64,000 bases of DNA, taken from the NCBI GenBank assembly GCA_049290235.1, contig JBATNG010000017.1:628-64627 (forward strand), given 5' to 3'. Source of the DNA: Candidatus Moraniibacteriota bacterium. GTDB taxonomy: Bacteria; Patescibacteriota; Minisyncoccia; Moranbacterales; UBA1568. Below the pieces are notes generated by a model that saw only the letters and a program-made list of their open reading frames with translations, did no database searches and was not told where the DNA came from. The translations under genes and the position numbers were made by a program. This document shows positions 26,958 through 60,300 of this stretch, piece by piece. Positions within the stretch are counted from its first letter, which is position 1, and every line of letters begins with the position of its first letter.

Positions 26958-26996
26958 CGCATCATTAGTTTCTCTCCATTAAAATCCCAGTCTAGC

Positions 26997-27473
26997 GTGA
27001 AATCTATGAAGAACAGTGAAGCAGCATTTCGCTGGATTATCGAAATATTCAAACGCCACGGACTACCTTTTGTTGTCCTCGGGGGCTTGGCGGCCCGAGC
27101 CTATGGTTCGACCCGCGAGCTGAACGATATTGATCTCGTCATTCACAGAGACAATTTCGAACGCATCCTTCCCGAGGTACGGGAGTATATCACTTTCGGG
27201 CCAGAAATGAGCCAGGATGAAGAAGCGGAAGGGTATTCTATGGTTCTTCAATACAAGGAGCAAGACATCGATATTGGAGCCGAGGAAGATTGCAAGATTT
27301 TCAACCAAGCAACTGGCCAGTGGGAACTCTTGGAAACGGACTTCAATAATGTAGACCTGAAAGAAGTCTTCGGGATCACGGTTCCTGTTATGAAGAAAGA
27401 AGCCATCATTACTGAAAAACTCAAGTTCAACCGGCCAGTGGATCACGAGGATATCAAACAAATGCAGAGTTAG
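26997..27473 (+). CDS. small nucleotidyltransferase, Lnu(A)/LinA-like
   Basis: FVVLGGLAARAYGSTRELNDIDLVIHRD compares with the Lnu(A) motif LDGGWGVDVL..REHRDIDIDFD. Size 158 aa. Confidence 0.5.
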   Translation: MKSMKNSEAAFRWIIEIFKRHGLPFVVLGGLAARAYGSTRELNDIDLVIHRDNFERILPEVREYITFGPEMSQDEEAEGYSMVLQYKEQDIDIGAEEDCKIFNQATGQWELLETDFNNVDLKEVFGITVPVMKKEAIITEKLKFNRPVDHEDIKQMQS

Positions 27474-27496
27474 AACCTGGTACGCTAGATAAACAT

Positions 27497-34360: not shown

Positions 34361-34368
34361 GTGCGAGT

Positions 34369-35388: not shown

Positions 35389-35543
35389 GCTAGCGAGGTG
35401 GTCATCTACAGTGCGTCGTGCGTATCAGCGATCAGTCACACTTATCAGCGAACGCCGAGGACTGTATACTAGAAGACACCTATCGCCCCACCCAGACCGT
35501 CATGACTCGTGAAAAACATAATCCAGTAAGCCCCCCAACACCT

Positions 35544-35936
35544 ATGAAGATTGCTATTGGCCTCATCGCTCTCGTCGCGATCATTTTTTTCGGGTATTTG
35601 CTCTGGCAGATGGGAGGACCAACGCCAGAGAGTCAGTCGGCTTCAGCGAACAATGTCAGTGTCGTCGATGGACAGCAGGTCGTCACGATATCAGCCAAGG
35701 CTGGATACACGCCGCGGGTGAGCGAGGTGAAGGCAGGAGTGCCGACGATTCTCCGCGTCGATACCCAGGGGACATTCGACTGTTCCTCGCAGATCCGTGT
35801 CCCGAGCCTGAACATTAGCCAATCCCTGCCTCCCTCCGGCGTCACCGATATCGCGCTCGGAATCCTCGAGCCAGGCGTGCTGCATGGCACCTGCGGGATG
35901 GGGATGTACCCTTTCCAGCTCAATGTTCAGAGCTAG
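35544..35936 (+). CDS. membrane-anchored cupredoxin-like putative copper-binding protein
   Basis: ATG at 35544. TM helix. C-terminal motif HGTCGMGM. Confidence 0.35.
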   Translation: MKIAIGLIALVAIIFFGYLLWQMGGPTPESQSASANNVSVVDGQQVVTISAKAGYTPRVSEVKAGVPTILRVDTQGTFDCSSQIRVPSLNISQSLPPSGVTDIALGILEPGVLHGTCGMGMYPFQLNVQS

Positions 35937-39352: not shown

Positions 39353-39606
39353 CGCCGGAGGATTGGCTCGGGCAATTGTCGCACTTTGGGTTGGTGCTTG
39401 TCTTCAGTGACGTGTCTTGGTATGATGGTTCCTGCGAGTTTGTTGTCCGATGGGGCAATTTTTTATTGTCGAACGCGGAGAGTACGAGGAGGACGAATCG
39501 GATGTGCTTCCCCGTACCTTGTGCCGATTGTTCGGTCGATATCGGTGATGTGTCCAAGCAGCGAGAAGGGGGTTACCTGTTGTGTCAAAATTTTTTTCGA
39601 TTGATT

Positions 39607-40038
39607 ATGCCGATCAAACACCGCCATCCAGCGCATGTCCAAGTGAAACGGACCCATATCGGGCTGGGACTTTTTGCCGTGACGGCGCTGAAGAAAGGAA
39701 CGACTGTCTTGGAATATATCGGTGAGCGGATACCGACGAGTGTCGGTGACGAACGGGACAACCGCTATATCTTCAATGTGAGTACGCGTATCGATATCGA
39801 CGGCAGTCCGCGTTGGAATACGGCGCGCTATGCCAATCACTCCTGTCGGCCCAACTGTGAGGCCATCAATCGGCGTGGCCGAATTTTCTTTGTCGCGAAG
39901 AAGTCGATCGCGAGCGGAGAGGAAATCACTCTCCATTATGGGAAGGATCACTTTGAAGGGTATATCAAACCCGTTGGCTGTCGGTGTATGAAATGCTCGC
40001 CTCTAGGCGTTGCGTCATCGAGGGCCACCCGGGGGTAG
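39607..40038 (+). CDS. SET-domain protein-lysine methyltransferase
   Basis: RYANHSCRPNC (NHSCxPN), EITLHYG (ELxxxY), post-SET CRCMKC. ATG at 39607. Confidence 0.75.
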   Translation: MPIKHRHPAHVQVKRTHIGLGLFAVTALKKGTTVLEYIGERIPTSVGDERDNRYIFNVSTRIDIDGSPRWNTARYANHSCRPNCEAINRRGRIFFVAKKSIASGEEITLHYGKDHFEGYIKPVGCRCMKCSPLGVASSRATRG

Positions 40039-40953: not shown

Positions 40954-41736
40954 ATGTCTGACCGCCGGCTCTCAGTTATCATCCCCACACTCAATGAGCG
41001 GGGGAATATCGAACCGCTCCTCCGGCGCCTGAGTGATTTTTTGACGCATCATCAGTATGTCTGTGAGGCGATTGTGGTTGATGATCGATCAACCGATGGG
41101 ACGTTTCAAAAATTAGAACGGTTGCAAGAGGAGGGTCTTCCTATCCGTCCGTTTCGAAAGATTGGTTGCCGAGGCAAGGCATACTCGCTTCTCGAAGGAT
41201 TTGAACGGGCGCAGTTTGATAACATCGCTATTTTGGACGCGGACCTCCAGTGTCCACCCGAGGCAATCGGTCCGATGTTTGAGTATCTTCTCTCGGGTAC
41301 GGACGTTATCGTTGCGAATCGGAGCAATGCTGTTGGAAACCCATGCCGTCGAATGGCGAGCTGGATTTTTCAGGAAGTCTTCGCTCGGCGGTTGAATGGC
41401 CTTCAAGTAGATTCACAGTCAGGACTGAAGCTCTTCCGCCGCTCGGTGTTAGAGTCAGTGACGCTTGCTCCATCCCCGTGGACCTTTGACATGGAATTCC
41501 TTTTGAAGGCACAGCTCGCGGGGTATGCTGTGAGAGGGTATACGGTTGATTTCTCTGAACGGAACTCTGGCGAATCGAAGATCAGTCTCTGGAGTGCTTC
41601 GGTCGAGATCGCGTGGAATGCGCTTTCCCTCTGGTATCAGCATCGGCTTCCGGTACTGGCACGTTCTGTGGGCGCCGGACTTCTGGGAAAGGGGAGGCGG
41701 CTCACGGGACTGATCAGTAATCGTCGCCTGTTTTAA
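40954..41736 (+). CDS. family 2 glycosyltransferase (polyprenyl-phosphate sugar synthase-like)
   Basis: LSVIIPTLNERGNI, DDRSTDGT, DADLQ. Confidence 0.75.
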   Translation: MSDRRLSVIIPTLNERGNIEPLLRRLSDFLTHHQYVCEAIVVDDRSTDGTFQKLERLQEEGLPIRPFRKIGCRGKAYSLLEGFERAQFDNIAILDADLQCPPEAIGPMFEYLLSGTDVIVANRSNAVGNPCRRMASWIFQEVFARRLNGLQVDSQSGLKLFRRSVLESVTLAPSPWTFDMEFLLKAQLAGYAVRGYTVDFSERNSGESKISLWSASVEIAWNALSLWYQHRLPVLARSVGAGLLGKGRRLTGLISNRRLF

Positions 41737-41749
41737 GTAACATCTTTGT

Positions 41750-42175
41750 ATGTCCAATCAACAGCCACTCGTGCTCCCGATCATCAACATTGCTCTTCCG
41801 AGGACGCTTATCCTCTACTTCTTCATTGGCTCGAGCGCAGCCCTCGTTGATGTGGTCGGGTTTTTCCTCCTGTTCAATACCTATGGGATACCGGCAGTAG
41901 TTGCGACGGCAATTTCTGTTTCCCTCGCGACGATCTACTCATTTGTGCTCAACGCGAAATATAACTTTAAGGTCAGCGATCGTCTGGGGATGCGTCTCGT
42001 CCTCTTCTCTCTGGTCAGCGGCGCTGGACTTCTCCTCTCAGCTCTCGCGCTGTATGTCGCGCATGATATGTACGGAATCAACGGAAACATCGTGAAGATC
42101 GCCTCATTGCCGGTTATTTTTGTGGTGCAGTTCTTGTTGAACAAGCATATTTCATTTAAGTCGAATACTTTATGA
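41750..42175 (+). CDS. GtrA-family small membrane protein
   Basis: Four-TM GtrA-like pattern. ATGA overlap with the next gene. Confidence 0.6.
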   Translation: MSNQQPLVLPIINIALPRTLILYFFIGSSAALVDVVGFFLLFNTYGIPAVVATAISVSLATIYSFVLNAKYNFKVSDRLGMRLVLFSLVSGAGLLLSALALYVAHDMYGINGNIVKIASLPVIFVVQFLLNKHISFKSNTL

Positions 42176-43512
42176 ACGAGACCGCTATGAAGAAATCAGT
42201 TGCTATCATCGGTGCTGGATATACTGGCCTCGTCGCTGCCTATCGCCTCGCCAAGGCTGGGCAGGCGGTTACGGTCTATGAACGAGAGTCGTATGTCGCC
42301 GGTCTCGTCTCAGGATTTTCTTTGGATGGGATTGCGATGGAGAAGATCTATCACTTTCTCTATAAGACCGATGCGGATATCCTCGGCCTCCTCGAAGAGC
42401 TGGGCGTCCGAGAGAAACTCGTCTTCCATGATAGCTCCGTCTCGACGTACTATGATGGAAAACTGTATCCATTCATGACCCCCGTGGACATCCTGCGCTT
42501 TACCCCGCTTTCATTTTTGAATCGGATCCGTTTTGGTGTTGTTGGTCTGTATTTGCAATTTTTGACCCGCTGGGAGCCCTTGACCCGTGTTACAGCCTAC
42601 GATTGGATGCTGAAATGGTCAGGCAAAGAAGTCATGGACATTATCTGGACCCCGCTGCTTAAGGGGAAGTTCTCGAAATACTATGACAAGATTGCCATGT
42701 CTTGGCTTTGGTCACGAATCCGGGTTCGGGCACGATCCAAGGAAAAGGGTGATGTCGTGGAGAAGTTAGGTTATTTTACCGGCGGTTGGCACATTGTGGC
42801 CGATCGTTTGGTCGAAGAGATTGAGAAGCTTGGTGGGGAAGTCCGTACAGGCGTACAGATCGAATCCCTTCGCTCCATCCCTGAGTCGGGGAAGGTTGAG
42901 GTGATGATTGATGGTTCTCCGATTCTTCACGATACCGTGATCGCGACTATTCCGACCCATGTCTTTGGTCGTCTCGTTGAAAATGATCCGTTGGCGACAG
43001 CTGAATACAAGTCACAGCTCGCGAGCATCGACTACATCGGTGCCGTCGTCATGCCGTTTGTTTCAACAGAACGTATCACCTCATATTACTGGCACAACAT
43101 CAACGATCCTCGCTGTCCGTTCCTCGTATTTCTCTCGCTTTCAGAGCTAGCCGGTTCGGAAAATTTTGGCGGTAAGCATGTGTATTACGTCGGTGCCTAT
43201 GTTTCGCACGACCACCCCTATTTTTCTCTCGAGAAGGAGGCTATCATGGATGAATGGAAAGCCGGACTGAAGCTGATGTTTCCGGATTTCGATGCTTCGA
43301 AGATAACCGCCACTGAGCTGTTCCGCTTCAAGAACGCACAGCATATTGTCGGAATGGGTTACAAGGAAAAGATGCCGGCGTATCAGACACCGCTTCCAGG
43401 CGTCTACCTCGCAAACTTTTCTCAGATCTACCCGGACGACCGTGGTACCAACTATGCGGTTCGTGACGGCAATGTGATTGCTGATATGGTATTGCGTAAC
43501 CTGAACGCCTGA
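42172..43512 (+). CDS. FAD/NAD(P)-binding oxidoreductase (amine oxidase / desaturase-like)
   Basis: Rossmann motif VAIIGAGYTGLVAAYRLAKAG. Confidence 0.65.
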   Translation: MNETAMKKSVAIIGAGYTGLVAAYRLAKAGQAVTVYERESYVAGLVSGFSLDGIAMEKIYHFLYKTDADILGLLEELGVREKLVFHDSSVSTYYDGKLYPFMTPVDILRFTPLSFLNRIRFGVVGLYLQFLTRWEPLTRVTAYDWMLKWSGKEVMDIIWTPLLKGKFSKYYDKIAMSWLWSRIRVRARSKEKGDVVEKLGYFTGGWHIVADRLVEEIEKLGGEVRTGVQIESLRSIPESGKVEVMIDGSPILHDTVIATIPTHVFGRLVENDPLATAEYKSQLASIDYIGAVVMPFVSTERITSYYWHNINDPRCPFLVFLSLSELAGSENFGGKHVYYVGAYVSHDHPYFSLEKEAIMDEWKAGLKLMFPDFDASKITATELFRFKNAQHIVGMGYKEKMPAYQTPLPGVYLANFSQIYPDDRGTNYAVRDGNVIADMVLRNLNA

Positions 43513-43528
43513 GACAGCATTCTCACCT

Positions 43529-46354
43529 ATGCCCAAGCTTGACCTCACTATCCTCCTACCGACCTATAACGAAGCGGCCAACATCGCTCCGTTGCTTCGG
43601 GCTGTCGCTCGCTCGCTTGAAGAGAGCGATGTGCGGTATGAAATCGTCTTTGTCGACGATAGTTCGGACATGACACCGGATGTCATCACTCGGATGCGAG
43701 AGGTTTACAAGGATGTCCGGCTAATTCGTCGAGCACCCGAAGAACGAACAGGTCTCGCAACAGCGCTCATCGCAGGCTTCGCAGCGGCGAAGGGCGAATA
43801 CATCCTCTGTATGGATTCCGATCTCCAACACCCACCCTATGCCATACCGGAGCTTATTGCGAAACTTCGCGAGACGGGCGCTGATGTGACCGTCGCGACG
43901 CGGTATGCTGCCGGCGGGAGCGCCGAGGGACTTGGTACGTTGTACCGTCGAGCCGTCTCCCACCTGTGTCGATTTGCGGCGTGGGCGATCATTCCGCAGA
44001 CGCACAAGACCACCGACCCGGGGAGCGGCTTCTTTGTGTTTCGGAAATCTATTGTCGAGAATCTTAATTTTCAGGGCCTTCAAGGATTCAAGATCCTGAT
44101 CGATATCCTCGCCCGGACCAAGAAGCTCCGAGTTTCTGAAGTTCCCTATACTTTCCGAAAGCGAATCAATAATGAAAGCAAGGCGACCGTCGAACAGGGG
44201 ATCGCCTTCCTTCGGCACCTTGTTCTTTTGAAGTGGCAGAGTCTCGTGCCTGAGGCAACAGGTCCGAAAAGTATCGAAAGCGCTATCCCGGCGCGTCGAG
44301 AGCCCCGGAACTGGGGTCGCATCTCTCAGACGCTTTTGATCGACGGCGCTATCGCCCTCGCGATTGGTCTGGTGGGGTGGTACCTGGTTGGTTACTACGC
44401 CGCCTTCAATTATTTGTACACGGGCTATGAGGACTGGATCTACCATGCGTTCCGAGTGAAGTCGCTGCAGGACCATGGGCTGGTCGCCTGGGACCATATC
44501 TGGAGTAACGGTATCGGTTATTGGAAACTGTACCAGTATGTGGCGCACTACATCATGCTCGGCGTCGTCGAGCTCACGGGTCTCCCAATTACCAAGGTGC
44601 TGCTGCTTTCTCTCGTTGTTCTCTACATCGGTCTTCGGGTGGCATTGTACGGCATCCTCCGTCTCCTCGGCGCGAATCGGATTTTTGCCGTGTTGCCAGT
44701 GATCGCTTCGTACACCATCGTCCAGGAGTGGGGTTCCATGCAGGATTACTCAATCTACATCGCTTTCATCGCCTTTCCCCTCCATCTCCTGCTTTGGATC
44801 ATGGCTTTTCGTGATCTCAAGTGGATTTATGTCTTGGCGGCGGTCACCGGTGCTGTCTGGACTTTTCATCCCGTATTTGGTTTCAATGCCTCAATCCTGC
44901 TTGGACTCCTCGTTGTCTTTTCAAAACTGAAATCCGATTTCTCAAAAATCTTCCGGGTAGGCATCGTCTATTTCATCGCAGCGGCACCATTTTTAACCTC
45001 GTACTTTACGGCCGGTTACTTCTTCACTAACCCGCTCTTCAAATCGTACATCTACCTCTCGACATCGGTACTGGCTCCGTACGGCGGCCTCAGTATGCTC
45101 TATTGGCTCCTTTTCGGGATTATCTGGCTTTTGGTTATCTGGCGCTCACAACTCGTCCCGACCTGGACCAAGGTGCTGCTGGTCTACGCGAGCGTTTATC
45201 TCGTACTCATTTACCTTGGACAGAAGGATTATCTTCCGAATTTCCTCGTCCAGTTCCAGTTCTCACGCGGCATCACAGCGGTCGCATTTGCTCTCGTCCT
45301 CGTTTTTGGTGTCGTGCTCCAGCGGACGCTCGGCGCGGTACAGGGACTTGGTATCAAGCTTGTCGCTACTGTTCTCATCGCTGCAGGCATCGTCCATGCT
45401 GTTGATATCGCTTCGCGTTACTACGTTTCACCGCCGGTCAATGAAATCCAGAATGCCGTTGCTGAGTATTTCACCGATCATGACTTGCCGAAGGGCAGTG
45501 TCTTTACAGAAAACGTTTCTGAAGCAACCTACTTTGCTCCGGCTGGCGTACGGTACGTCACGTCATACAATGAGCATATGCAGCCGCATCCCTATTCGAC
45601 GCGTCTTCGCGTTCTCATGAATAGTCGGCTCGGTTACACGGGTATTTCACAGGCCCATCTCCGGAACATCGAGAATTACGCCACCGTTCTTGGTATCGAA
45701 TATCTCTTTTTGCCCGCAGCCTCACCGTTGGTCACGGGGCTGACTTCCAAGGACGGAGCAATGTTCGAGTTGGTTGCGCTTGAGAATAGCGAACCGCTGA
45801 CCGACGCGATTGCTGTGCTCCGTAATACGTCGCCAATCATATCAGCCTTTGCTGTTTCGCGCTCGGAAATTTCTGACCGCCTCCTTAGTGATGAGCTTCC
45901 ATTGCCAACGATTCATATTGCCTCCTACAAGCCGTGGGATGAACGGATTGCTGAGATGGCAGAGATCGTGCGTTCCTCGGCCATTGTGCCGATCGAAGTC
46001 GGATTTGTTCCGACCAATGTACTGGAGATTGGTGGCGAGTCATTTCCCAAGTTGGATACGATGAATGATCCAATCATCCTCGTCAATCAGAGCTATGATG
46101 CGAAATGGCAGGTAGTTTCTCCTCAGGCGGGCGCATGGTCTGTTCAGCCATCGACACTTCGGCTTATGGTGTTGGAAAAATCGGGGAGTGTCCCGGTTCA
46201 GGCCTTTGAATTACGCAATGATTGGCCGTGGTGGTACTGGCCGGTGCAGTCCCTCGGGGTCGTGATGACTCTTGTGGCTGTGCTTTGGACTATGAAGACG
46301 CATGGTCTTATCCGAATTTCGTTCAGGAAACTCTCCAGCTATGTCAACAAATAA
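43529..46354 (+). CDS. GT2 glycosyltransferase fused to a large polytopic membrane domain (GT-C/YfhO-like)
   Basis: N-terminal LTILLPTYNEAANI..DDSSD..DSDLQ, then more than 12 predicted TM helices and a C-terminal soluble domain. Confidence 0.6.
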   Translation: MPKLDLTILLPTYNEAANIAPLLRAVARSLEESDVRYEIVFVDDSSDMTPDVITRMREVYKDVRLIRRAPEERTGLATALIAGFAAAKGEYILCMDSDLQHPPYAIPELIAKLRETGADVTVATRYAAGGSAEGLGTLYRRAVSHLCRFAAWAIIPQTHKTTDPGSGFFVFRKSIVENLNFQGLQGFKILIDILARTKKLRVSEVPYTFRKRINNESKATVEQGIAFLRHLVLLKWQSLVPEATGPKSIESAIPARREPRNWGRISQTLLIDGAIALAIGLVGWYLVGYYAAFNYLYTGYEDWIYHAFRVKSLQDHGLVAWDHIWSNGIGYWKLYQYVAHYIMLGVVELTGLPITKVLLLSLVVLYIGLRVALYGILRLLGANRIFAVLPVIASYTIVQEWGSMQDYSIYIAFIAFPLHLLLWIMAFRDLKWIYVLAAVTGAVWTFHPVFGFNASILLGLLVVFSKLKSDFSKIFRVGIVYFIAAAPFLTSYFTAGYFFTNPLFKSYIYLSTSVLAPYGGLSMLYWLLFGIIWLLVIWRSQLVPTWTKVLLVYASVYLVLIYLGQKDYLPNFLVQFQFSRGITAVAFALVLVFGVVLQRTLGAVQGLGIKLVATVLIAAGIVHAVDIASRYYVSPPVNEIQNAVAEYFTDHDLPKGSVFTENVSEATYFAPAGVRYVTSYNEHMQPHPYSTRLRVLMNSRLGYTGISQAHLRNIENYATVLGIEYLFLPAASPLVTGLTSKDGAMFELVALENSEPLTDAIAVLRNTSPIISAFAVSRSEISDRLLSDELPLPTIHIASYKPWDERIAEMAEIVRSSAIVPIEVGFVPTNVLEIGGESFPKLDTMNDPIILVNQSYDAKWQVVSPQAGAWSVQPSTLRLMVLEKSGSVPVQAFELRNDWPWWYWPVQSLGVVMTLVAVLWTMKTHGLIRISFRKLSSYVNK

Positions 46355-47867
46355 CACTCAAAAACCAGAACGCTTTCTCGCCTCGACACGGATCGATAAT
46401 CTGACGATTGTCTTTCTGCTCTCGGCACCGTTTGTCGTAGTCTTCTACGCTTCTTTCGTCTTCAATCCAGCCAATGCCGATCACCTCGTGCTCTATGCTT
46501 TCCAGGTGTTGGCGGATGCGATCAGTATCACGGTACTCGCCGGACTCTGGGTGACCGTCCTTCTCGATGTCGTTGTTGAGTGGCATCATCGTTTGAAGCG
46601 TGTCTGGGATGCCTCATTTCTCGAGACGAGCCCAACGATAGACTGTATCGTAACGACATATAATGAGCCGATTCCAGTGATCCGCAGGACGCTCAAGGCC
46701 GTCATCTCGATGGAGTATCCCCATACGACGTATGCCTTTGACGACGGACAATCGGCTGAAGTTGCAGCACTCGCGAAGGAGCTTGGAGTCCGCTACGTGA
46801 CGCGCGAGAGCCGTCAGCATGCGAAAGCGGGGAATTTGAACAATGGCCTTCAGCAATGCGAAGGAGACTTTTTTGCGGTCTTTGATGCCGATCAGGTGCC
46901 AAAGCCAGACTTTATCACGACACTCCTCCCCTATATGGCCAATGCTCGTGTCGCGATGGTTCAATCGCCGCAGCACTACGCGAATACCGAACACTTTATC
47001 GCCTCTGGCGCAGCCCAGGCGCAGGAAGTTTTTTACCGCTATGTCTGCCCGTCAAAGAACATCTCGAATTCAGCCTTTTGCGTTGGGACGAACATGATTT
47101 TCCGTCGGGCGGCGATCGATAGCATTGGTGGAATCGCGTTCAATAAATCAGAGGACATCTGGACCTCGCTCAAGCTTCATGAGGGCGGCTGGCAGACTAT
47201 TTTCGTGAACCGTATCCTCGCTATCGGACAGGCGCCTGATACAGTCGTCTCGTATTTCAAGCAGCAGCTCCGCTGGGCCCGTGGTGGACTCGAGATGTTG
47301 TTCTATCATAACCCACTGCGTTCTACTCGACTTCAGCTCGACCAGCGTATCCAATACTTCATGTCGAATTCATTCTTCTTGGTCGGGATTTCGATTTTCG
47401 TCTACCTCATTTTTCCGCTCCTCTATCTCCTCTTCTCCATCAAGCCGCTCGAGTCGCTATCGCCATTTACCTGGCTCGTCCACTACGTTCCGTTCTTCCT
47501 CCTCTATTACTCCCTCACGTGGCTGTTGACTGGCCGACTCCATCTCTCGACCCTCGCGACTGCGCTTGCGACATTCTACCCGTACCTCATGGCACTCCTC
47601 TCTGTATTCTTTGACAAGGAGCATGAGTGGACCGCGACGACGTCGAAGAAAAGCTCCCAGGACTACTTTATGAAGTGGGCGTGGCCGCATGCTTTTATCA
47701 TGTTCCTCACGCCGCTCGCGCTTATAGTTGGTTGGTATAATAATTACGATTTCTGGTCGACACTCTTCTATTCTGTCTGGTCTGTCGTGAACATGCTCCT
47801 CCTCTATGTGTTTCTCACCGGTGAAGGTCGCACCGGGAGCGGTCCGCGAAAAGAATCAGAAGCCTAA
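46341..47867 (+). CDS. processive family 2 beta-glycosyltransferase (cellulose/curdlan/chitin synthase-like; QxxRW)
   Basis: DDGQS, FDADQVP (DxD), QQLRWARG (QxxRW), and TM helices at both ends. Confidence 0.75.
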   Translation: MSTNNTQKPERFLASTRIDNLTIVFLLSAPFVVVFYASFVFNPANADHLVLYAFQVLADAISITVLAGLWVTVLLDVVVEWHHRLKRVWDASFLETSPTIDCIVTTYNEPIPVIRRTLKAVISMEYPHTTYAFDDGQSAEVAALAKELGVRYVTRESRQHAKAGNLNNGLQQCEGDFFAVFDADQVPKPDFITTLLPYMANARVAMVQSPQHYANTEHFIASGAAQAQEVFYRYVCPSKNISNSAFCVGTNMIFRRAAIDSIGGIAFNKSEDIWTSLKLHEGGWQTIFVNRILAIGQAPDTVVSYFKQQLRWARGGLEMLFYHNPLRSTRLQLDQRIQYFMSNSFFLVGISIFVYLIFPLLYLLFSIKPLESLSPFTWLVHYVPFFLLYYSLTWLLTGRLHLSTLATALATFYPYLMALLSVFFDKEHEWTATTSKKSSQDYFMKWAWPHAFIMFLTPLALIVGWYNNYDFWSTLFYSVWSVVNMLLLYVFLTGEGRTGSGPRKESEA

Positions 47868-47896
47868 TCACGATTTCTCTCTAATCTCTCACCTCT

Positions 47897-48790
47897 ATGT
47901 CGCAATCAACCAATCGCTCAATCAAGACGCTTGTCGTCAACGGCCTCTACCTCGGTGCTGCTTTTCTGTTTGCGTTTATGATCGCGACACAGGCACTGAT
48001 GCACAAGATCAATAACTACGAACTCAACAAGAGCCTTATTTTCCTTACGGTAAAGAAGGAGCGAGTGGATGTTTCAACCACTGTTGCTGGCCGGATTGAA
48101 GAGATTCTGGTCCGACAGGGGTCATCGGTAAAAGAAGGTGAAATCGTTGCTCGATTGAAAGATGAGGGGAGAGTGTTAAAAATTGCCGCACTACGTCCAG
48201 TCGCTGGGGCAAACCTCTCCGCTCGTACCGAGCTCGAGCTGCTTTTGGCACAGGAGGATGAGTTCGAGATTCGTGCTCCGCGCTCTGGTGTCGTAGAGAA
48301 GGTCCATTCGACCAAGGGTACTTCCGTTATCGAGGGGTCTGTCCTACTCACGGTGTATGCCAATGATGATCTTGAACTCGTCGGCACTATTCGCCCAGAG
48401 CAATATAACCTCATCGACAAGCACCGGAGCATCAGTGTCTTTAACCCGCGGCTCGGCCAGGCCTTCACTGCTTCGTTCCAGGGTATCACTGGTGTCCGTG
48501 ACGATCTCTTGCCAGATGGGACCATCGCACCAGTCCAGAATGACGCGGTAAAGAAAAACGAGATGTACGAAATTCGGTTCTCGCTCAATGAAAAGGAAGA
48601 AGGAGGATCCTTTATTGAAGGAGAGAAGCTCGAGGTCATCTCGGAAAACGCTGATGTCGAGCAGTTGAAGCCTCTCTATCGTCTGGCGCGGATGTGGAAC
48701 AGCCTGATCCTCGGGACAGATTTCGACGCGCTCCGTAAATACAATGAAGGAAATAATAATGACATTCCCAAGACTGAAGAATCTCAGTAA
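47897..48790 (+). CDS. HlyD-like membrane-fusion / periplasmic adaptor-type protein
   Basis: N-terminal TM; lipoyl-like hairpins GEIVARL and GSVLLTV. Confidence 0.5.
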   Translation: MSQSTNRSIKTLVVNGLYLGAAFLFAFMIATQALMHKINNYELNKSLIFLTVKKERVDVSTTVAGRIEEILVRQGSSVKEGEIVARLKDEGRVLKIAALRPVAGANLSARTELELLLAQEDEFEIRAPRSGVVEKVHSTKGTSVIEGSVLLTVYANDDLELVGTIRPEQYNLIDKHRSISVFNPRLGQAFTASFQGITGVRDDLLPDGTIAPVQNDAVKKNEMYEIRFSLNEKEEGGSFIEGEKLEVISENADVEQLKPLYRLARMWNSLILGTDFDALRKYNEGNNNDIPKTEESQ

Positions 48791-50732
48791 GTACATCCTC
48801 GGGGCGGCCGTTATCGGCAGTTCCGTTCTTTGGTTTGTCTGGTCACAGAAGTCGGCTGATCCGATAGTCACTCCAAAACACGAAGAAGTAACCGTTTATA
48901 CCCCGAAAGAGCGAAGCGTCGGGGAGCGGACCAATACCTGGTTTTCCAGCCTGTACCGAAGTTTCCCGTCCGCACCACTTTTTGTCTTCCCAGGATCCTA
49001 TCAGTTTACGGAAAGCGGGCTATCCATCAGTGATTCGCAGCTTGTCCCGACTGAAAAAACGCTGTACGGGAGTTTCAACCCGGTATGCACAGTGAATGGC
49101 ACCAACTCGGTCAAGAACATCACGGTGGAACGCTATGGAGACTGGGATGTTTCCGTCGCGGTTGAGCCATCAGTGGGGGATTCTTGGAGCGTGCAGCTCG
49201 TCCAGGGTTCGCCGATCGTGAATATCTCGGACTTTGTTTCCGATATGAAACCAGCCTGTGGAGATGGTGTCCAGCCGTCAAGATATCGGCAGGACGCGAT
49301 TCTCGTAAAGCGCGGCGACCAGCCGGTGCTTCTTATCCAGGCGATGGATGCCGAAGCAACAGAGGGTATCGTTCTCCGGTCTGAATCTGACCGGTACCGA
49401 GTGATCCAGCTCCCAATCTCTACCGACCAATCACTCGATTTCTTCCTCGATCTCGCTTGGGATCGAGTTCTGGATACCCAGTACGACTGGTCCGAAGATC
49501 AGAGTACTGAACGTATCAGACTCGTCACGCTCACCGAGAGTGGTCAGTCGTCTCTCACCACCGTCTGGCCACATCACCGTCTGGCGGGTGTGAGTATGAC
49601 ATCATTTGGGAGCTATTCGACGGTGTATGGTCGTCTTGATCTCGTCCGTTCCGATCGGATCGAATTCCGCCAGTCACGACCCGAGCTCCCGATCGGATTC
49701 AAGCCGGTAAGCGACGAGGCTGAACGGGCTAAAATCGAGGAATCTCTCCGCACGGACAGCCTGCGGTATCAAACGGAGACACCTCCATCCGGAGTGTATT
49801 TCCGTGGCGCCTGGTTTGGCGGCTTAGCGAGTCTCATCCTCTTGGCGGATGCGTACGGGCTTGAGGATGAGCGATCGAAACTGCTTGATCTACTCGAGAC
49901 ACATTTCCGTCCCGCGCTCGTTGACTTTGCGTATGATGATGCAAAGAAAATGCTCATTGCTGCGAAGAATTCGGAATTCGGCAACGAAAAGGGGAATGAT
50001 CACCATTTTCATTACGGCTACTATCTCCGCTCGGGTGCCGTGCTCGTCCAGTATCGTCCAGAGATCCGGGGAGAGCTCGTGCCGATTCTGAACGAAATGG
50101 CGCTCGATATCGCGAATACCGATCGATCATCTGATCGTTATCCGTTCCTGCGCCACTTCTCGCCGTACGCCGGTCATTCGTGGGCGGATGGGGAAGCGCT
50201 CTTTCAGGATGGCAACAATCAAGAATCAAGCTCGGAGGCGTTGAACGCTTGGTATGCCCTCTCGCTTTGGGGGAGTGTGACCGGCCAAGAAGTCTATGCT
50301 ACTACGGGGCGGAATCTCTACGCGCACGAACTCCTCGGCATCCGGTCATATTGGTTTGGCGAAGGGAATGCGTTTCCGTCTGAATACCGTCACCCGATCG
50401 TTTCACTCGTCTGGGGTGGAAAGCGTGACTACGCGACCTGGTTCAGCGCTGACCCGATGCATATCCAGGGGATACAGTGGCTGCCGATGACACCGGCATC
50501 GACCTACCTCGGCCGACTCCCGGGCCATGAGGCACGGATGCGTGATCTGGGATCGAGTGGAGCTCTTGCAGCGACTCATGAGTGGGGCGACCTCTATATC
50601 GCGTATCTGTCGTATCATGATCCGGCGGAAGCGCTCCGGAATCTCGAGTTGGCCGTCCCACGCCAGGCAATCAAATCAACCGCACTCCTCCGGCACATTG
50701 TCTACACGAACTCGTCCTCAGGTAATCGCTGA
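48759..50732 (+). CDS. secreted glycoside hydrolase, probably GH81 endo-beta-1,3-glucanase
   Basis: NDHHFHYGYYL and QESSSEALNAWYALSLWG resemble the GH81 signature blocks as I recall them. N-terminal signal/TM. Confidence 0.5.
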   Translation: MTFPRLKNLSKYILGAAVIGSSVLWFVWSQKSADPIVTPKHEEVTVYTPKERSVGERTNTWFSSLYRSFPSAPLFVFPGSYQFTESGLSISDSQLVPTEKTLYGSFNPVCTVNGTNSVKNITVERYGDWDVSVAVEPSVGDSWSVQLVQGSPIVNISDFVSDMKPACGDGVQPSRYRQDAILVKRGDQPVLLIQAMDAEATEGIVLRSESDRYRVIQLPISTDQSLDFFLDLAWDRVLDTQYDWSEDQSTERIRLVTLTESGQSSLTTVWPHHRLAGVSMTSFGSYSTVYGRLDLVRSDRIEFRQSRPELPIGFKPVSDEAERAKIEESLRTDSLRYQTETPPSGVYFRGAWFGGLASLILLADAYGLEDERSKLLDLLETHFRPALVDFAYDDAKKMLIAAKNSEFGNEKGNDHHFHYGYYLRSGAVLVQYRPEIRGELVPILNEMALDIANTDRSSDRYPFLRHFSPYAGHSWADGEALFQDGNNQESSSEALNAWYALSLWGSVTGQEVYATTGRNLYAHELLGIRSYWFGEGNAFPSEYRHPIVSLVWGGKRDYATWFSADPMHIQGIQWLPMTPASTYLGRLPGHEARMRDLGSSGALAATHEWGDLYIAYLSYHDPAEALRNLELAVPRQAIKSTALLRHIVYTNSSSGNR

Positions 50733-50754: not shown

Positions 50755-50793
50755 AATAAAAAAATCAATCCGCCAACTGGCGGATTGATTTTT
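50755..50793. terminator. bidirectional rho-independent terminator
   Basis: aaaaaaa-aatcaatccgcc-aact-ggcggattgatt-tttt. Confidence 0.7.
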
Positions 50794-51319
50794 TAGTGAG
50801 GTGGGGGACTCTCTTACAAGAGCCCGACCTGACCGAAGAAAGTGAGGGTGAGGACTGGCACGAGAGCGAGGAGGAACGCCATAGACGTTTCCTGGCTTTG
50901 CGCCTGTTCTTGGGCGACTTTGGCACAGTTCTCACACGAAGGGCCGCTGCACGGAGCCTCCATGACGGGCTCGTTTCCCTTGGTCTCCATAGGAGTTTTT
51001 GTTTTTATTTTTTATTAAAACGACCTTGCCGAAAGAAAAAAACGGGGGGCAGAGCCACCCGTTTCTCTCACTTCAACATATTTAGTATACTCCCGTTTTT
51101 GGTAAAAGTCAAGACCTGTTAGAGGTTTAATGAAGTATGTTCAAAAGAATCCTAGCGGTCCTTCATCGATGGCGGGTGTTCAAAGAAGTTCTTCCTGACT
51201 TCTAACAGGGTCAGACCCCTGCTCGGACAGAAGGTCGTTCGGGGAATGCTGAAACATATGATTGTCATCAGCATCGGGTAGAAGATTTGGCGAGAATGTT
51301 GTACACTAGAAAACAACAT

Positions 51320-54014: not shown

Positions 54015-55856
54015 CTATTTCTCAACTCGGAAGACTTTCACATAGTTGCCCGGACGGTCATCGAGCTCGAGCGACCAGACGGGTGGGATAGCGGTTTGGC
54101 GGTAGTAGCGATGGGCGGTCAGTCCGGAGAGGCGTTCCCAGCGAGTGAAGCGCGACATGTAGCGGGCTTCACCGCGGCGGGTGAGGACATAATAGTCCGG
54201 TTTGATTTCATTGCCATCAAATGTGTAAGCGGTGAGGCAGTGGCCCACAAAGAATTCGCAGACACCGTAGTAGTCGCTCCAGACGGTGAGTGCGGAAGCG
54301 TTCGGGAGCGTGTTTAGGTATTGGGCGGCTTCATAACCACCATAGCCCCAGGCATCAGCGATGAGAGCGTTTTTCGGCAGGAGGGTATTGGCGTAGTTTG
54401 CATAGAACGGGTAGATGGCACAGAGCGAAACGGCCGAAGCGATGATCACGACGAGCGCGATACCCTTCCGGAAGTTGGGCCACTTCGTTTCACCCCAAGC
54501 GGCGCATTCCCGCAGACCGAGCGCGCCGAGGACAGCGAGAAGTGGGAAGAGGATAATGGCGTAGCGCGCGGTGGCGAGGATATTGGAGTGGATCAGGATG
54601 AACGTGAAACCGAGCATGAAGAGTGACAGTGTGAGAATAATAGATCCGTCAGTGATTGCTCGACGCCGGAGCGCGATAATCCCAAGTCCGAAGAGGCTCA
54701 GGAGAAGCACTGGCGGGAGCGAGAAGACAATGGCATTCCATTCGAGGAAGAAGGCTTCGAGAAAGTTCGGTACACTCGCATGGTAACGGGCGTCGGTCAG
54801 GTCTTTGATGTCGAAGGGGATCGCATAGATGTTCCAGCCGGGGAAGGCATACCGGCTGATGATGACAGCAGTGAAGAGGAAGAGGAAGAAGATCGGTACG
54901 AGTTTGACGCTTGGCGCAGCCTTTCGGAGAAGGTAGCGGAGCTTCAGAAGGCACCGGGACTTGAGGAGGAAGAGATCAATGAGAAAGAGCAGCACGACCG
55001 GAGCGAAGGAATAAAGAAGGACTTCTTTGTCAGGGACGGTCGCGAGATACTCGGCCAGATATTTTCGGTCAAGGAAGAAGGCGGGGACGGCAGCGAGGAC
55101 AAGGACGACGGAGGCTGCAGCGATCATGACGAGACGGTAGAAACCGGTCGAGAGTTGCGTGCGGAGCGAATCAAGAGTCTCCTCTTCCGAAGCAGCGATG
55201 AAGTGGATGATGTACGCTAAGCCGAAAGCTGGGAATAGGATAAGCGCAGTGTATTTCGAAAGGAGTGCCAGCGTGGTGAACAGGAGAGTCGCGAAGAGGT
55301 CGCGCCGAGTGTCGAATCTGAGCAGCGCGAAATAGGAAAGAAAAGCGGCGGTCGAAGTTGACCAGAGAAGGGCATCGGGGTTTACGATTTGTGTCATGCC
55401 AAGAAGCACTGGCGAGAGCGCGGTGAGGCCCGAAGCGAAGAGTGCGGTCCACGGATCGAAGAGCCGGGCGAGGAGGAAAAAGATGTAGATGAGAATGAGG
55501 CCGTTCGCGAGGAGGAGCGGTAACCGGAAGGCGAGGAGGAGCGGCGCAGTTTCATCGACCTGGCACTGGTACAGCCGATTGTCTTGCTCCACGCAGTGTG
55601 TGGCCGTGTCAGGGAGGGCGAGGAGGGCTGGGCCAGTGATGAGGGCGAGCGAGACTCCGGGTTTGTCATTGATGAAGGTTTTTCGAAGCTCCCAGTCACC
55701 CCAGGCATTCCAATATTTCGGTACCCGCTCGTAAAGCCAGTAGTGTTCGTCCGCGGTCAGAAACTGAGTCAGGTGGAGCGAGCTGAAGAGCGCATAGAGC
55801 CCCATGACCAGGACGAAAAGCGGCTTGGGTTGGAGGAGGTTGGTGAGGAAGGACAT
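54015..55856 (-). CDS. GT-C family glycosyltransferase (GT39/ArnT/PMT-like)
   Basis: About 13 TM helices and a C-terminal soluble domain. Confidence 0.6.
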   Translation of the reverse strand: MSFLTNLLQPKPLFVLVMGLYALFSSLHLTQFLTADEHYWLYERVPKYWNAWGDWELRKTFINDKPGVSLALITGPALLALPDTATHCVEQDNRLYQCQVDETAPLLLAFRLPLLLANGLILIYIFFLLARLFDPWTALFASGLTALSPVLLGMTQIVNPDALLWSTSTAAFLSYFALLRFDTRRDLFATLLFTTLALLSKYTALILFPAFGLAYIIHFIAASEEETLDSLRTQLSTGFYRLVMIAAASVVLVLAAVPAFFLDRKYLAEYLATVPDKEVLLYSFAPVVLLFLIDLFLLKSRCLLKLRYLLRKAAPSVKLVPIFFLFLFTAVIISRYAFPGWNIYAIPFDIKDLTDARYHASVPNFLEAFFLEWNAIVFSLPPVLLLSLFGLGIIALRRRAITDGSIILTLSLFMLGFTFILIHSNILATARYAIILFPLLAVLGALGLRECAAWGETKWPNFRKGIALVVIIASAVSLCAIYPFYANYANTLLPKNALIADAWGYGGYEAAQYLNTLPNASALTVWSDYYGVCEFFVGHCLTAYTFDGNEIKPDYYVLTRRGEARYMSRFTRWERLSGLTAHRYYRQTAIPPVWSLELDDRPGNYVKVFRVEK

Positions 55857-57366: not shown

Positions 57367-60300
57367 TTAGACCAGCTGGGTCTGGACGCTGGGCTCCTCG
57401 CCCGTTTTCACATCAAACCACATCTCGTAGATGACGGGGATGAAGAAGAGTTTGGCGACGCCAGAGAACGAAAGTCCGGCGATGATCGCGCCGCCGAGGC
57501 CCTGCCAGATCGGATCCGACAGTGTGATCGGGATGAGACCGACGATGGTCGTGAGGGCAGTGAGGAGGATCGGTTCGAGCCGGCTGGTGGCACCTTCGAC
57601 TACGGCTTCACGGACTGGGAGCCCGAGGTCGAGATTCTTGTTGATCTTGTCGACCATGATGATGGAGTTGTTCACCACGATGCCGAAGAGCGCCAGGACG
57701 CCGATCAAGGCGGGGAACGAGAGCGGAATGCCGAAGAGCGCGAAGATGACGAACACGCCAGAGACCGCGATCGGAATCACGAGGAGGACGATGAGGGCCT
57801 TGCGGTAGGAATTGAATTGGATCACCATGGTGGCGAAGATGAGAATGGCGGAGAGGAGCATCGCGTACATGATCGACTGAACAGACTTGTTGTTTTCCTC
57901 GTTGACCCCGCCGGTCTTCCAGCTATAGCCATCGGGGAGGTCGAGCTCACCATCGGCAAACTGTTCGAGGGCCGCGTTGAGCTCGGTCACCGAGTAGCCT
58001 TCATTCACGGCGGCTGAGATGGAGATGCTGCGTTGTTCGTCTTCACGTGTGATGAGCGTCGGGTTCTTGCGGAGTTCAAGCGCCCCGAGGGCGAGCAAGG
58101 GTACCGGTTCGCCCGACCGAGTCATTACCGACAATCGCCCGATATCCTCGGGTGATGCGAAGTTTTCAGCGGTGAGTCGGAGCACGATATCGCGCTTGTC
58201 TTCACCAAAACGTACATCCTCTTTCACGGTGAAACCATTGCCGAGTGTTCGGATATAGATCCCTGTGTCGGCACCGGACAGTCCGGCCGCCGTGAGGGCA
58301 GCGTCATTGGGGATGAAGGAGAGCTTTTTCCCGGCGCTCGACAGCGAGACCGAGACATTGCTCGTGCCTGTCATACCTTGGAGATGCTGCTTGGTCTTTT
58401 CGGCAAAGGCTTCAAGAGTGTCCAGGTCCGAACCGAGAAGCTTCAACTGGAGGTCGGCCCCAGCCGGTGGACCACCCGAGAGCTGAGAAGCGGTGATGAT
58501 GCCGCCGTTCCAGTCGGCGAATGAACGATTGAGTTCTGTCACGATCGCACTCGATTTTTTGTCGCGCTCCTTGGCTTTGATGAGGTGGAGCGTGAAGAGG
58601 ATATGACTGAAGTCTTTGCCCGTGGCACTCAGAGCGCTATCGGTCGGCGCCGTGGCACCGATTTCCGCGAGCACGAAGTCGAGTTCGGAGAGGTGCTGGA
58701 AGCGTGGCAGGAGTTCCTGTGCGGCCGCAGTCGCTTGATCTGGGGTCGTTCCCGTCGGCAATTCCGCCCCAACATAGATGATGTCGATATCGTCGCCGGG
58801 GAAGAATTCATTGACCACGAAGCCGAGCGGAACGAGGGCGTACGATGCGAGGGTGAAGACGATGAGGAAAACGATCGTCAGCCGGCGGGCTTGGCGCGAA
58901 GATAGAATCCGTTCGATGAGCACCGCATACCAGAGACTGAGACGGTCAAAGGAGAGAAGGCCATGATCCTGGAATTGGGTCCAGGCACCACCGAGACGGG
59001 TCGTCTTCCACGCCGTGACGGTTCGGAAGAAAGAGCGAGTGAGGCGGAAGGCGAGGCCGAGCAAAACGGCCGCCGCCAGAAACAGTGGCCACTTCATCGG
59101 TCCGATGGGCATGACGAAGAAGACAGCGACGAGGATCAGGACGTAGAGGAGCACTCGGAGGAAGAGAATGACTCGGCGTGGGAAGTGGCCTTCGAGGAAG
59201 ACGGCCATGTAGGGGATGACGAGGAAGAGAGCGGTCGCGGCGGAGAGAGCCAGGGCGGAAGAGACCACTACCGGGATCGGTCGGATGAATTCACCGATGA
59301 TGCCGGTGGCGAGGAGGAGGGGGACGAAGGCCCAAACGGTCGTGATCGTCGTGGTGGTGATGACGCCGCTGAAATCACGGAACACGAGGAGCACGGTCTC
59401 GCTCGGAGTGAATTTCCCAGAGCGGTGGTAGCTGGCGATGGCCGAGATGACGACGATCGCATTGTCGACGAGGATGCCGAGAGCGAGGAGGAGTGAGAAG
59501 AGTGAGATGAAGTTGATCGAGATACCGACGGAGCGCATCACGACGAAGGTCGCGAGGAAGGTGAAGGGGATCGCAAAGGCGGCGATGAGCGACTGACGTA
59601 CTCCGAAGAAGAGGAGCAGCATGATGAAGACGAGTCCGAAGGTGATGAGGAAATCACGTTGGAGTTGACTGAAGCTTCGATCGATTTCTTCTGAGCCATT
59701 GAAATAAGTCGAGACTGTGAAGGCGACGGGCGAGATGGCCCGGTACTCAGCGATCGCGGATTCGATACTTTCGATGGTGACCCGGGTGTCGGCGCTCTCG
59801 GTCTGATAGGCGGCGAAGAAAATAGCGCGCGAGGCATCGTGGGCATGACTCAAGACGAAAGCGGGGAGCGTCCCGGGCTGCTCGCGTTCAACGATCTCGG
59901 CGAGGCTACCGAGCGGCACGGTCTGGCCGGCGAGGGTAACCGGGAGGGTGCGGAGCGCAGCGACGGAACGAACGCTTTTCTCTTGATCGAGCGAGAGGGC
60001 GGTCCCGGAGGCAGCGAGTGTCCCTCCGGGGAAGTTTCCGAGCGCCGTCTCGATGGTTCGGGCGAGGAGGGGGATGTTCAAATTATGGGCCGCGATGGAT
60101 TCGGGTGAGAGGAGGATTGAAATCTCTGGATCACGCCGATAGGTGAGATCGACTTTCTCGACGGCGGGCAGGGCTTTGATCCGATCGAGGAGTTCGTCGG
60201 CGATGATAGGGAGGGCGCTCTCATCATCGGGCGCGGAGAGAGCGAAGAGCATCACGGGTTGGTTTTGGAAGTCGATGACCTCGACCGATGGATCTTGGCT

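Follow-up and report, generated by a model that had tools for sequence, protein, structure and literature searches.

A 64,000-nucleotide stretch of contig JBATNG010000017.1 (hereafter the window), from a Candidatus Moraniibacteriota bacterium of the Patescibacteria or candidate phyla radiation (CPR) group, was found to encode a family 2 glycosyltransferase (GT2) synthase, an HlyD-like adaptor and a GH81 glucanase homologue within a run of seven genes (40954-50732). We infer that the operon's probable product is a beta-1,3-linked surface glucan, linear or decorated, made by synthase-dependent machinery. The synthase-adaptor-GH81 module was conserved and co-evolving across two phyla, Patescibacteria and Actinomycetota.

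An earlier note on this DNA, made from the letters alone, had described four consecutive + strand genes at 43529-50732, and four co-directional + strand open reading frames (ORFs) were present at exactly these positions. The GT2, GtrA and oxidoreductase genes that it had mentioned upstream correspond to the first three entries below, in which DPMS stands for dolichol-phosphate mannose synthase and all coordinates are those of the window.

40954-41736, + strand: GT2a, predicted soluble polyprenyl-phosphate glycosyltransferase of the DPMS/GtrB/ArnC class, 260 aa (Pfam PF00535, 3.6e-25, and PDB matches)
41750-42175, + strand: GtrA-family small membrane protein, 141 aa (Pfam PF04138 GtrA_DPMS_TM, 8.4e-18, 65 bits against a 26.1-bit cut-off)
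42172-43512, + strand: FAD-dependent amine-oxidase/phytoene-desaturase-like oxidoreductase, 446 aa (NCBIfam PRK07233 and Pfam Amino_oxidase)
43529-46354, + strand: ORF1, 941 aa
43529-44248, + strand: N-terminal DPMS-like GT2 domain of ORF1 (PF00535, 1.2e-29, residues 7-177)
44309-46354, + strand: C-terminal part of ORF1, predicted GT-C fold with an extracytoplasmic beta-rich domain, 681 aa (AlphaFold2 model and Foldseek)
46302-47867, + strand: ORF2, synthase, 521 aa as an ORF, 508 aa from the deposited start at 46341
47897-48790, + strand: ORF3, adaptor, 297 aa
48744-50732, + strand: ORF4, GH81 homologue, 662 aa as an ORF, 657 aa from the deposited start at 48759
50759-50794, no strand: terminator-like hairpin, a perfect 16-bp palindrome with A6 and T6 flanks (terminator scan)

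The intergenic gaps among the seven genes ranged from -47 to +29 nt, and the hairpin, which was the top terminator-like site of the scan, began 27 nt past the GH81 stop; the seven genes are therefore one tight operon closed by a strong hairpin. The operon split into two sub-modules. One, for lipid-linked sugar supply, comprised the two DPMS-class GT2 domains, the GtrA protein, the FAD oxidoreductase and the C-terminal 681 residues of ORF1, and the other comprised the synthase, the adaptor and the GH81 protein. In GenBank, ORF1 to ORF4 were named 'polyprenol monophosphomannose synthase', 'glycosyltransferase', 'HlyD family efflux transporter periplasmic adaptor subunit' and either 'hypothetical protein' or 'glycosyl hydrolase'. 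The synthase was 100% identical to QQR78651.1 ('glycosyltransferase'). A near-identical copy of the locus was present on a 1.217-Mb contig, in which ORF1, synthase and adaptor were sequence-identical and the GH81 protein fell within the same 90% cluster.

The synthase, the adaptor and the GH81 protein

The synthase gave Pfam GT2 and Cellulose_synt matches and aligned over residues 108-504 with the BcsA structures of R. sphaeroides and E. coli (PDB 4hg6/5ej1, ~1e-47). Its motifs were HAKAGN, DAD (in FDADQ), SED and QQLRW, the last within the QQLRWARG block that the earlier note had picked out, and a gating-loop-like WTATTSK aligned to FAVTAK of BcsA. Hydrophobic segments flanked the GT domain on both sides. 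As every motif of the D, DxD, SED, QxxRW series was found, the protein is predicted to be a processive GT2 glucan synthase of the BcsA/BgsA type, as had been proposed. It scored 247 bits (3.7e-73) against TIGR03030 CelA, compared with 41 bits against the NodC model and 74 bits against PgaC, and hence does not group with the chitin-type synthases; no hyaluronan synthase was among its matches, although no search was aimed at that family. The protein ended ~16 aa past its last hydrophobic segment, and so it has neither a PilZ domain nor any other C-terminal regulatory domain, including one like that of BgsA. The CelA score was below the 699-bit equivalog cut-off, the score against PRK11498 was 195 bits against a cut-off of 992, and no BcsB-like gene was found in the window. 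Together with the missing PilZ domain, this places the synthase outside BcsA proper.

The adaptor matched Pfam HlyD_3 (39 bits, cut-off 22.2) and Biotin_lipoyl (40.7 bits, cut-off 22.1), in agreement with its first description as HlyD-like, and had one N-terminal transmembrane segment (hydrophobic stretch 9-35). A profile of 16 adaptor homologues matched MacA (7.5e-15), EmrA, membrane fusion proteins (MFPs) of resistance-nodulation-division (RND) systems, LipC and HlyD in the PDB. The lipoyl halves lay at profile positions 31-107 and 98-204, that is, they were overlapping and nearly contiguous. In MacA they occupied chain positions 7-89 and 132-237, and in HlyD they were further apart; the spacing in the matched PDB chains was 40 to >100 residues, which is where the alpha-hairpin sits. 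The segment between the lipoyl halves was ~30 aa in Patescibacteria and shorter in Actinomycetota. On account of this near-contiguity the adaptor is predicted to be a short HlyD/MFP-type protein with a membrane anchor, a split lipoyl domain and a beta-barrel domain, in which the alpha-hairpin is almost absent. The envelopes of CPR bacteria and Actinomycetota are thought to have one membrane, and a hairpin-less adaptor fits organisms without a TolC-bearing outer membrane. A second adaptor gene in the window (60733-61926, - strand) encoded an HlyD-type protein of ordinary length, 397 aa compared with the hairpin-less 297 aa of the operon, and adjoined an AcrB-family RND pump gene (57367-60717, - strand, 1.4e-154); such a pump with its adaptor is a curious find if the organism has, as presumed, a single membrane.

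ORF4 scored 157.8 bits against Glyco_hydro81C PF17652 (cut-off 25.6, 6e-46) and matched the GH81 structures CtLam81A (6fop, 6e-57), BH0236 (1.6e-45) and RmLam81A (2.7e-23). The alignment with BH0236 (query 61-639, chain 49-663) covered all three domains, namely the N-terminal beta-sandwich, the linker and the catalytic barrel; the carbohydrate-binding modules (CBMs) of BH0236 were missing from ORF4. The NDHHFHYGY and QESSSEA blocks from which the family had first been recognised were both present in the translation. Residues N418, D419, H420, H421, E494, S495, S497 and E498 were invariant in 14 linked GH81 homologues, and these include the catalytic Asp/Glu/Glu, D419 (NDHH) with E494 and E498 (QESSSE). 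E494 aligned with the Glu that is replaced in PDB 5t4c (E to Q) and 6fop (E to A), replacements that we read as deliberate inactivation. ORF4 can accordingly be assigned to GH81 rather than another family, as a predicted endo-beta-1,3-glucanase homologue with intact catalytic motifs. The N-terminus was hydrophobic in all linked GH81 homologues. It took the form of a signal-anchor in Patescibacteria; in those Actinomycetota copies that were aligned, the hydrophobic stretch closed with a lipobox-like L-[AT]-[AG]-C. From these N-termini the linked GH81 proteins are predicted to be membrane-tethered and to stay at the cell surface.

Conservation of the module

A forward scan was made with a synthase alignment as query against one genome per species of the Genome Taxonomy Database (GTDB), and 80 loci with 10-kb flanks were taken. 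Adaptor, GH81 and GT-C genes were called in them with hidden Markov models (HMMs) built from locus hits. A reverse scan of metagenome contigs with a GH81 alignment as query also gave 80 loci, the 80-locus sets being the best-scoring subsets of >537 hits. In the forward scan the adaptor gene lay directly behind the synthase gene in 75/80 loci and a GH81 gene was found in 71/80; all five loci without the adaptor, and every locus without GH81, were cut at contig ends. A single locus, L023, was explained only via an alternative arrangement with GH81 upstream. The neighbourhood that had been noticed in the window is thus one that its relatives share. The locus titles named Moranii-, Woese-, Levy-, Gottesman-, Berkel-, Dojka-, Peri- and Paceibacteria. 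The Actinomycetota loci came from Salinibacterium, Microbacterium, Leifsonia, Cellulomonas, Demequina and Nakamurella, with Microbacteriaceae among the families, and their synthases were 36-39% identical to the window synthase. The module is therefore widespread in Patescibacteria and Actinomycetota, and the earlier remark that it would be uncommon outside a few proteobacteria did not hold.

A GT-C gene, stand-alone or fused, was directly upstream of the synthase gene in 42 of the 43 Patescibacteria loci, the exception being cut by a contig end, and the stop of the one and the start of the other often overlapped. None of the Actinomycetota loci had this gene, and an HMM of 41 homologues of the ORF1 C-terminal part matched nothing in loci L044-L080. 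Long ORFs upstream in Leifsonia were considered as a counterpart; BLASTP returned nothing for them and they look like high-GC artefacts. The fusion of the DPMS-like and GT-C domains, with the GtrA and oxidoreductase genes adjacent, was confined to the nearest Moranbacteria. A convergent gene of GT87 type behind GH81 was also rejected as a member of the module, being conserved within Cellulomonas only; it was the neighbour in L049 and L054, and the C. fimi homologue was a protein of 433 aa without a Pfam call.

Several loci with near-identical synteny (L001-L005, L008, L009, L011, L017, L018, L021, L023, L025 and others) were titled 'TPA_asm uncultured Bdellovibrionales/Gammaproteobacteria/Pseudomonadales'. 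One of them, L008, was 93-96% identical to the window over the whole operon and on to typA, which suggests that these titles are wrong taxonomic labels. A separate case was L053 (CAYQTN010000044.1, labelled Candidatus Saccharibacteria), the synthase of which (4130-5785) nested among those of Actinomycetota (100% bootstrap) and not with other Patescibacteria; this placement would be explained either by transfer of the gene between Saccharibacteria and their actinobacterial hosts or by a wrong label on the bin.

Among the 80 loci of the reverse scan, GH81 was linked to a synthase or adaptor gene in 40 and was clearly stand-alone, with ample flanks, in six, the other 34 having flanks too short to be informative. 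In a neighbour-joining (NJ) tree of GH81 (all trees here are NJ trees of small samples), none of the 40 linked copies fell inside the clade that held all six stand-alone copies. As the linkage was found in both search directions and linked and stand-alone copies formed separate clades, the association between synthase and GH81 is not due to chance: the synthase and the linked GH81 branch travel and evolve together. Metagenome contigs L092-L098 and L102 (GC ~0.50) and L162 (GC 0.35) carried synthase, adaptor and GH81 in the same order without the GT-C gene, and their synthases were ~33-36% identical to the window synthase.

These data also bear on the possibility that co-location is meaningless, with GH81 foraging on external beta-1,3-glucans (laminarin, fungal walls or callose) and the synthase making an unrelated product. 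The bacterial GH81 enzymes characterised so far are secreted biomass-degrading enzymes (PMC9609564), and a large clade of stand-alone GH81 genes exists, both of which would suit foraging. Yet the linkage was near-universal, held in both search directions and in two phyla, and came with conserved order, overlapping genes and separate clades. The linked GH81 proteins, moreover, lack the CBM modules of BH0236 and are predicted to be tethered, and no sugar-uptake genes were found in the operon. We consider the foraging or coincidence reading strongly disfavoured, and very improbable indeed.

The likely polymer and its assembly

The activity reported for GH81 is on beta-1,3 linkages, and synthase-dependent operons as a general rule encode a hydrolase for their own polymer, of which BcsZ and the clostridial CcsZ are examples (PMC8892547); the polymer should therefore hold runs of beta-1,3-linked glucose. 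The production and trimming of a beta-1,3-glucan-type polymer, as envisaged in the earlier note, is thus supported by the conserved trio. A further pointer came from Cellulomonas, species of which make a curdlan-type beta-1,3-glucan, abundantly in C. flavigena (PMC3544764). Each sequenced cellulomonad has two CrdS-like GT2 proteins, 35-39% identical to Agrobacterium CrdS, and exactly two GH81 proteins (PMC3544764, text and Table S2). In C. fimi ATCC 484 (CP002666) we found GT2 (576 aa), MFP (243 aa) and GH81 (714 aa) genes in this order at 3.856-3.869 Mb. Cellulomonas sp. S1-8 (L169/L170, CP110806.1, ~3.97-3.985 Mb) had a tandem synthase-MFP-synthase-MFP-GH81 arrangement with a single GH81 gene, and two convergent GT87-family (GT-C) genes lay downstream of it.

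The same machine might instead make another polymer, either cellulose or a strictly alternating beta-1,3/1,4-glucan as for BgsA, if the specificity of the GH81 subclade had shifted. GT2 motifs do not reveal linkage, the closest annotated relatives retrieved were BgsA orthologues paired with HlyD proteins, and mixed-linkage glucan is the demonstrated product of one BcsA-like enzyme from a Gram-positive bacterium (PMC10374906). Since the linked GH81 proteins form clades of their own, their specificity could conceivably have changed. On the other hand, endo-beta-1,3-glucanase is the sole activity reported for GH81, holding for every characterised member, and cleavage of mixed-linkage barley glucan, carboxymethyl (CM)-cellulose and pustulan is absent or marginal (PMC9609564). 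The catalytic and flanking motifs did not vary and were the same as in the beta-1,3-glucanases of solved structure, and Cellulomonas, for which curdlan is the known glucan, carries the module. In an NJ tree with the BgsA group and E. coli BcsA as references, the GH81-linked synthases formed a clade apart from both, the BgsA group itself having 99% bootstrap support. Another polymer from the same machine therefore seems unlikely to us.

Some points nevertheless weigh against a beta-1,3-glucan product and against the breadth claimed for the module. The linkage is inferred from the family of the neighbouring hydrolase and not from the clade of the synthase, the sequence of which cannot by itself separate curdlan from mixed-linkage glucan or cellulose. 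The nearest annotated relatives retrieved for it, the BgsA proteins, were 31-33% identical by tblastn (over 80% of its length, as the best-scoring annotated relatives in a plasmid collection) and ~28% identical in a trimmed alignment, and E. coli BcsA was 24% identical. Support from Cellulomonas is correlative: the C. flavigena genome was outside the comparison, and the C. fimi locus is consistent in position with Celf_3456, a match made by genome position only. The taxonomic breadth rests partly on the titles of metagenome-assembled genome records, many of which appear unreliable. A single-sequence model of the adaptor had a pLDDT of 39, with only the N-terminal helix (residues 3-43) confident, and was left unused.

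The genes of the lipid-linked sugar sub-module were assigned as follows. GT2a matched dolichol-P-mannose synthase (5mlz, 3.5e-22), the GtrB-type sll0501 (5.7e-16) and ArnC (5e-13) in the PDB; it adjoined the core only in the closest Moranbacteria loci. The N-terminus of ORF1 matched the same dolichol monophosphate mannose synthase, 5mlz, at 1e-41 over residues 4-240, as well as ArnC (5.5e-15) and sll0501 (2.5e-12), so that GT2a and residues 1-240 of ORF1 are both predicted to belong to the polyprenyl-phosphate glycosyltransferase class. The GtrA protein, with four to five hydrophobic segments, is a putative flippase or partner for the polyprenyl-phosphate sugar. The FAD oxidoreductase scored 440 bits (cut-off 252) against PRK07233, itself named 'hypothetical protein', and 4.4e-25 against Amino_oxidase; its gene sits between gtrA, which it overlaps by 4 nt, and the DPMS-GT-C fusion, and it occurred together with GtrA in L001-L008, L013, L020 and L030.

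The C-terminal part of ORF1 was modelled with AlphaFold2 from a 33-sequence alignment (pLDDT 89.9, pTM 0.88). Foldseek against the PDB returned AftD (6w98, 6.7e-7), followed by AftA (8if8), the C-mannosyltransferase DPY19 (7zlh), PglB, AglB and Pmt4, with a probability of 1.00 and query TM-scores of 0.35-0.48 for these GT-C structures. The model thus points to a polytopic membrane glycosyltransferase of GT-C fold. Neither the 681 aa themselves nor 33 homologues, beyond the GT2 domains of the latter, had a Pfam match at E = 1, and for the 681 aa this included YfhO (PF09586). The fusion of a GT2 with a GT-C domain described in the earlier note was accordingly upheld and its YfhO-like label was not; as judged from these searches, this part of ORF1 belongs to no described sequence family. 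A nearly invariant D42 was found in a YEDWIYHAFR stretch just past the first helix and may correspond to the acidic residue that GT-C enzymes conserve in their first extracytoplasmic loop. With a polyprenyl-phosphate GT2, a GtrA protein and a GT-C protein encoded together, the three-component set of Gtr-type systems is present at the gene level.

This coupling admits a reading in which the polymer or glycoconjugate is made mainly by the GT-C/polyprenyl-phosphate branch, for example as a lipid- or protein-anchored glycan, and the synthase and GH81 serve wall remodelling. The invariable coupling of the GT-C and synthase genes in Patescibacteria, often with overlapping stop and start, the fusion to a DPMS-like domain here with GT2, GtrA and oxidoreductase genes before it, and the fold matches to arabinan, mannan and protein glycosyltransferases would all agree with it. 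The trio, however, works alone in Actinomycetota, which keep synthase, adaptor and GH81 without this GT-C, and GT2a, GtrA and the oxidoreductase are adjacent only in the closest Moranbacteria. A GT-C-centred product is, in our judgement, quite unlikely, even more so than a different polymer from the synthase.

For the beta-1,3-glucan machine that we favour, the following mechanism is proposed. The 508-aa synthase would polymerise glucose, presumably from UDP-glucose, on the cytoplasmic face and thread the chain through its own transmembrane channel. As there is no PilZ or other module for cyclic di-GMP (c-di-GMP), control would probably be transcriptional or via partner proteins. The adaptor would sit on the outer face of the synthase, probably as a co-polymerase or guide comparable to BgsB, the cyanobacterial HlyD-like partner or Alg44. 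Precedents for a synthase with an HlyD-type partner are bgsBA with TolC (PMC13438883) and, further, the cyanobacterial BcsA/HlyD-like/TolC-like system and Alg44 (PMC8892547). The tethered GH81 would cut the chain as it emerges or after its deposition. Such cuts might control chain length, free the polymer, remove chains that have stalled or open the layer when cells divide, much as BcsZ acts on cellulose and Eng1 on fungal septa. The GT-C enzyme of Patescibacteria may work outside the membrane with a polyprenyl-phosphate sugar as donor, either placing side residues on the glucan or attaching the glucan to an acceptor. The lipid-linked donor would here come from the fused and the free DPMS-like GT2 and be handled by GtrA, following Gtr or CsbB/GtcA/YfhO logic. 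A role for the FAD oxidoreductase in modifying the lipid-linked sugar or its carrier lipid is pure speculation.

A broader version of this proposal is that a GT-C-decorated beta-1,3-glucan forms a 'fungus-like' wall or sheath layer CPR-wide, as a conserved envelope component, through a four-protein machine (GT-C, synthase, MFP and GH81), with GH81 in cell separation or release and the layer in host attachment, and that the Actinomycetota trio is the long-sought curdlan machinery of Cellulomonas, shared by ancient exchange between CPR bacteria and Gram-positive hosts. Taken as a whole this is doubtful. Almost nothing is known of the envelope chemistry of CPR bacteria, most of which are uncultured and have genomes of ~1 Mb. 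Many CPR phyla have kept this operon of ~10 kb, ~1% of a 1.2-Mb genome, which indicates an important surface polymer, and beta-1,3-glucan probes (aniline blue, dectin-1-Fc or CBM fusions) should mark enrichment cultures if that polymer is a beta-1,3-glucan. In Actinomycetota the trio is a candidate for the machinery with which Cellulomonas makes curdlan. The route by which C. flavigena recycles its curdlan was called unclear in the C. fimi genome paper (PMC3544764), and a GH81 encoded right behind the synthase may explain it. If true, the proposal would describe a minimal single-membrane form of synthase-dependent secretion, in which an MFP partner minus the TolC-docking hairpin informs on MFP co-polymerase function. 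For applications, it would add to the available beta-1,3-glucan synthases, each with a glucanase to match.

On the 5' side of the operon, before 40954, lay unrelated genes for a pseudouridine synthase, a bacterial SET-domain protein (39376-40038, + strand) and a type II secretion system (T2SS)-type ATPase. Further upstream was a copper-handling set (32057-35936, + strand) with a P-type ATPase with an HMA domain, a DsbD_2 protein with HMA and a cupredoxin. The hairpin was followed by a peptidyl-prolyl isomerase (PPIase) gene, typA and then a PMT_2 gene on the opposite strand. This last gene (54015-55856, - strand) is the downstream GT39/ArnT-like gene of the earlier note. Its presence was borne out, but as it is on the minus strand, behind hairpin, PPIase and typA, and rarely conserved, it was ruled out as a member of the cluster. 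Elsewhere in the window, a 2371-aa ORF (209-7324, + strand) had no Pfam match at 1e-4 and may be a giant surface protein as typical of CPR genomes. A tRNA-Asn gene (14911-14985) was followed by two class-II (Asp/Lys/Asn-type) aminoacyl-tRNA synthetase paralogues at 15169-16326 (+ strand) and 18265-19515 (- strand). The region 20000-28000 had a GC content of 0.43-0.46 compared with 0.52-0.59 elsewhere. Within it, the gene 22518-24278 (+ strand) encoded the archaeo-eukaryotic primase (AEP) domain of a TOTE conflict system (PF22548, 8.6e-74) fused to a ResIII/DEAD helicase; the region is probably an acquired defence island.

Comparison with known systems

A system with similar parts is BgsBA(-TolC) of Sinorhizobium and Rhizobium, in which the gene for a PilZ-less BcsA-family synthase likewise adjoins an HlyD-type MFP gene. 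The gene order is reversed relative to the window, and the rhizobial bgsBA loci have no GH81 or GT-C gene. BgsA, at 617 aa, is ~110 aa longer than the 508-aa window synthase; its C-terminal peptide binds c-di-GMP (PMC5567048; PMC10374906), whereas the window synthase has no room for such a domain. The MFP is required in the BgsBA export machine and BgsB works with TolC (PMC13438883), whereas the window-type adaptors occur in lineages thought to be single-membrane. The annotated HlyD partners are 397-455 aa long compared with 240-300 aa for the essentially hairpin-less adaptors of the window family. With ~28% identity, a separate clade, no C-terminal domain and a hairpin-less MFP, the present system is distinct from BgsBA. 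The tblastn search of the plasmid collection that retrieved BgsA returned bgsBA-type, other HlyD-linked and bcsA loci only, and no CrdS, CrdA or CrdC; an R. leguminosarum record annotated 'Curdlan synthase' was rejected as CrdS, as a 'hemolysin D' gene directly upstream identified it as a bgsBA locus.

The Bcs systems (BcsA-BcsB-BcsZ-BcsC) and the clostridial Ccs systems share with the window a processive GT2 with its own channel and a dedicated endoglucanase encoded in the operon. BcsZ-type endoglucanases are GH8 enzymes. The window system differs in having no BcsB, no PilZ and no outer-membrane component, and its hydrolase is of the GH81 (beta-1,3) rather than the BcsZ type. In a cyanobacterial BcsA/BcsZ variant, an HlyD-like protein and TolC replace BcsB and BcsC (PMC8892547).

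CrdASC of Agrobacterium would be alike in product class, a predicted linear beta-1,3-glucan, and in having a BcsA-like synthase. In place of the accessory CrdA and CrdC of Agrobacterium the window has an MFP and GH81, and no hydrolase is known to lie within crdASC. The Cellulomonas GT2 proteins, with the identity to CrdS cited above (PMC3544764), are likely members of the window family, judging by the genome position of the C. fimi locus.

Gtr-type systems (GtrB/GtrA/GtrC, CsbB/GtcA/YfhO and PgfS/PgfM) similarly bring together a polyprenyl-phosphate GT2, a GtrA-family protein and a GT-C transferase. In the window, by comparison, a single 941-aa protein combines GT2 with GT-C; the latter part has no YfhO, PMT or other Pfam match and is coupled to a synthase-dependent glucan operon, where the Gtr-type systems serve O-antigen or teichoic acid.

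Fungal beta-1,3-glucan synthase and the GH81 enzymes Eng1 and Eng2 are alike in logic, in that a membrane synthase deposits the glucan and GH81 opens the layer. The fungal synthase Fks1 belongs to GT48; it is unrelated to the window synthase, and the fungal genes are unclustered. Eng1 and CaENG1 are cited as cell-separation enzymes (PMC9609564).

No description of a PilZ-less synthase with a hairpin-less MFP and a tethered GH81, joined in CPR bacteria by a GT-C protein, was found in the literature searched. The combination has not been described as a system, and the public annotation of its genes is generic. In its manner of working, the system resembles the synthase-dependent exopolysaccharide machinery of Bcs and BgsBA.

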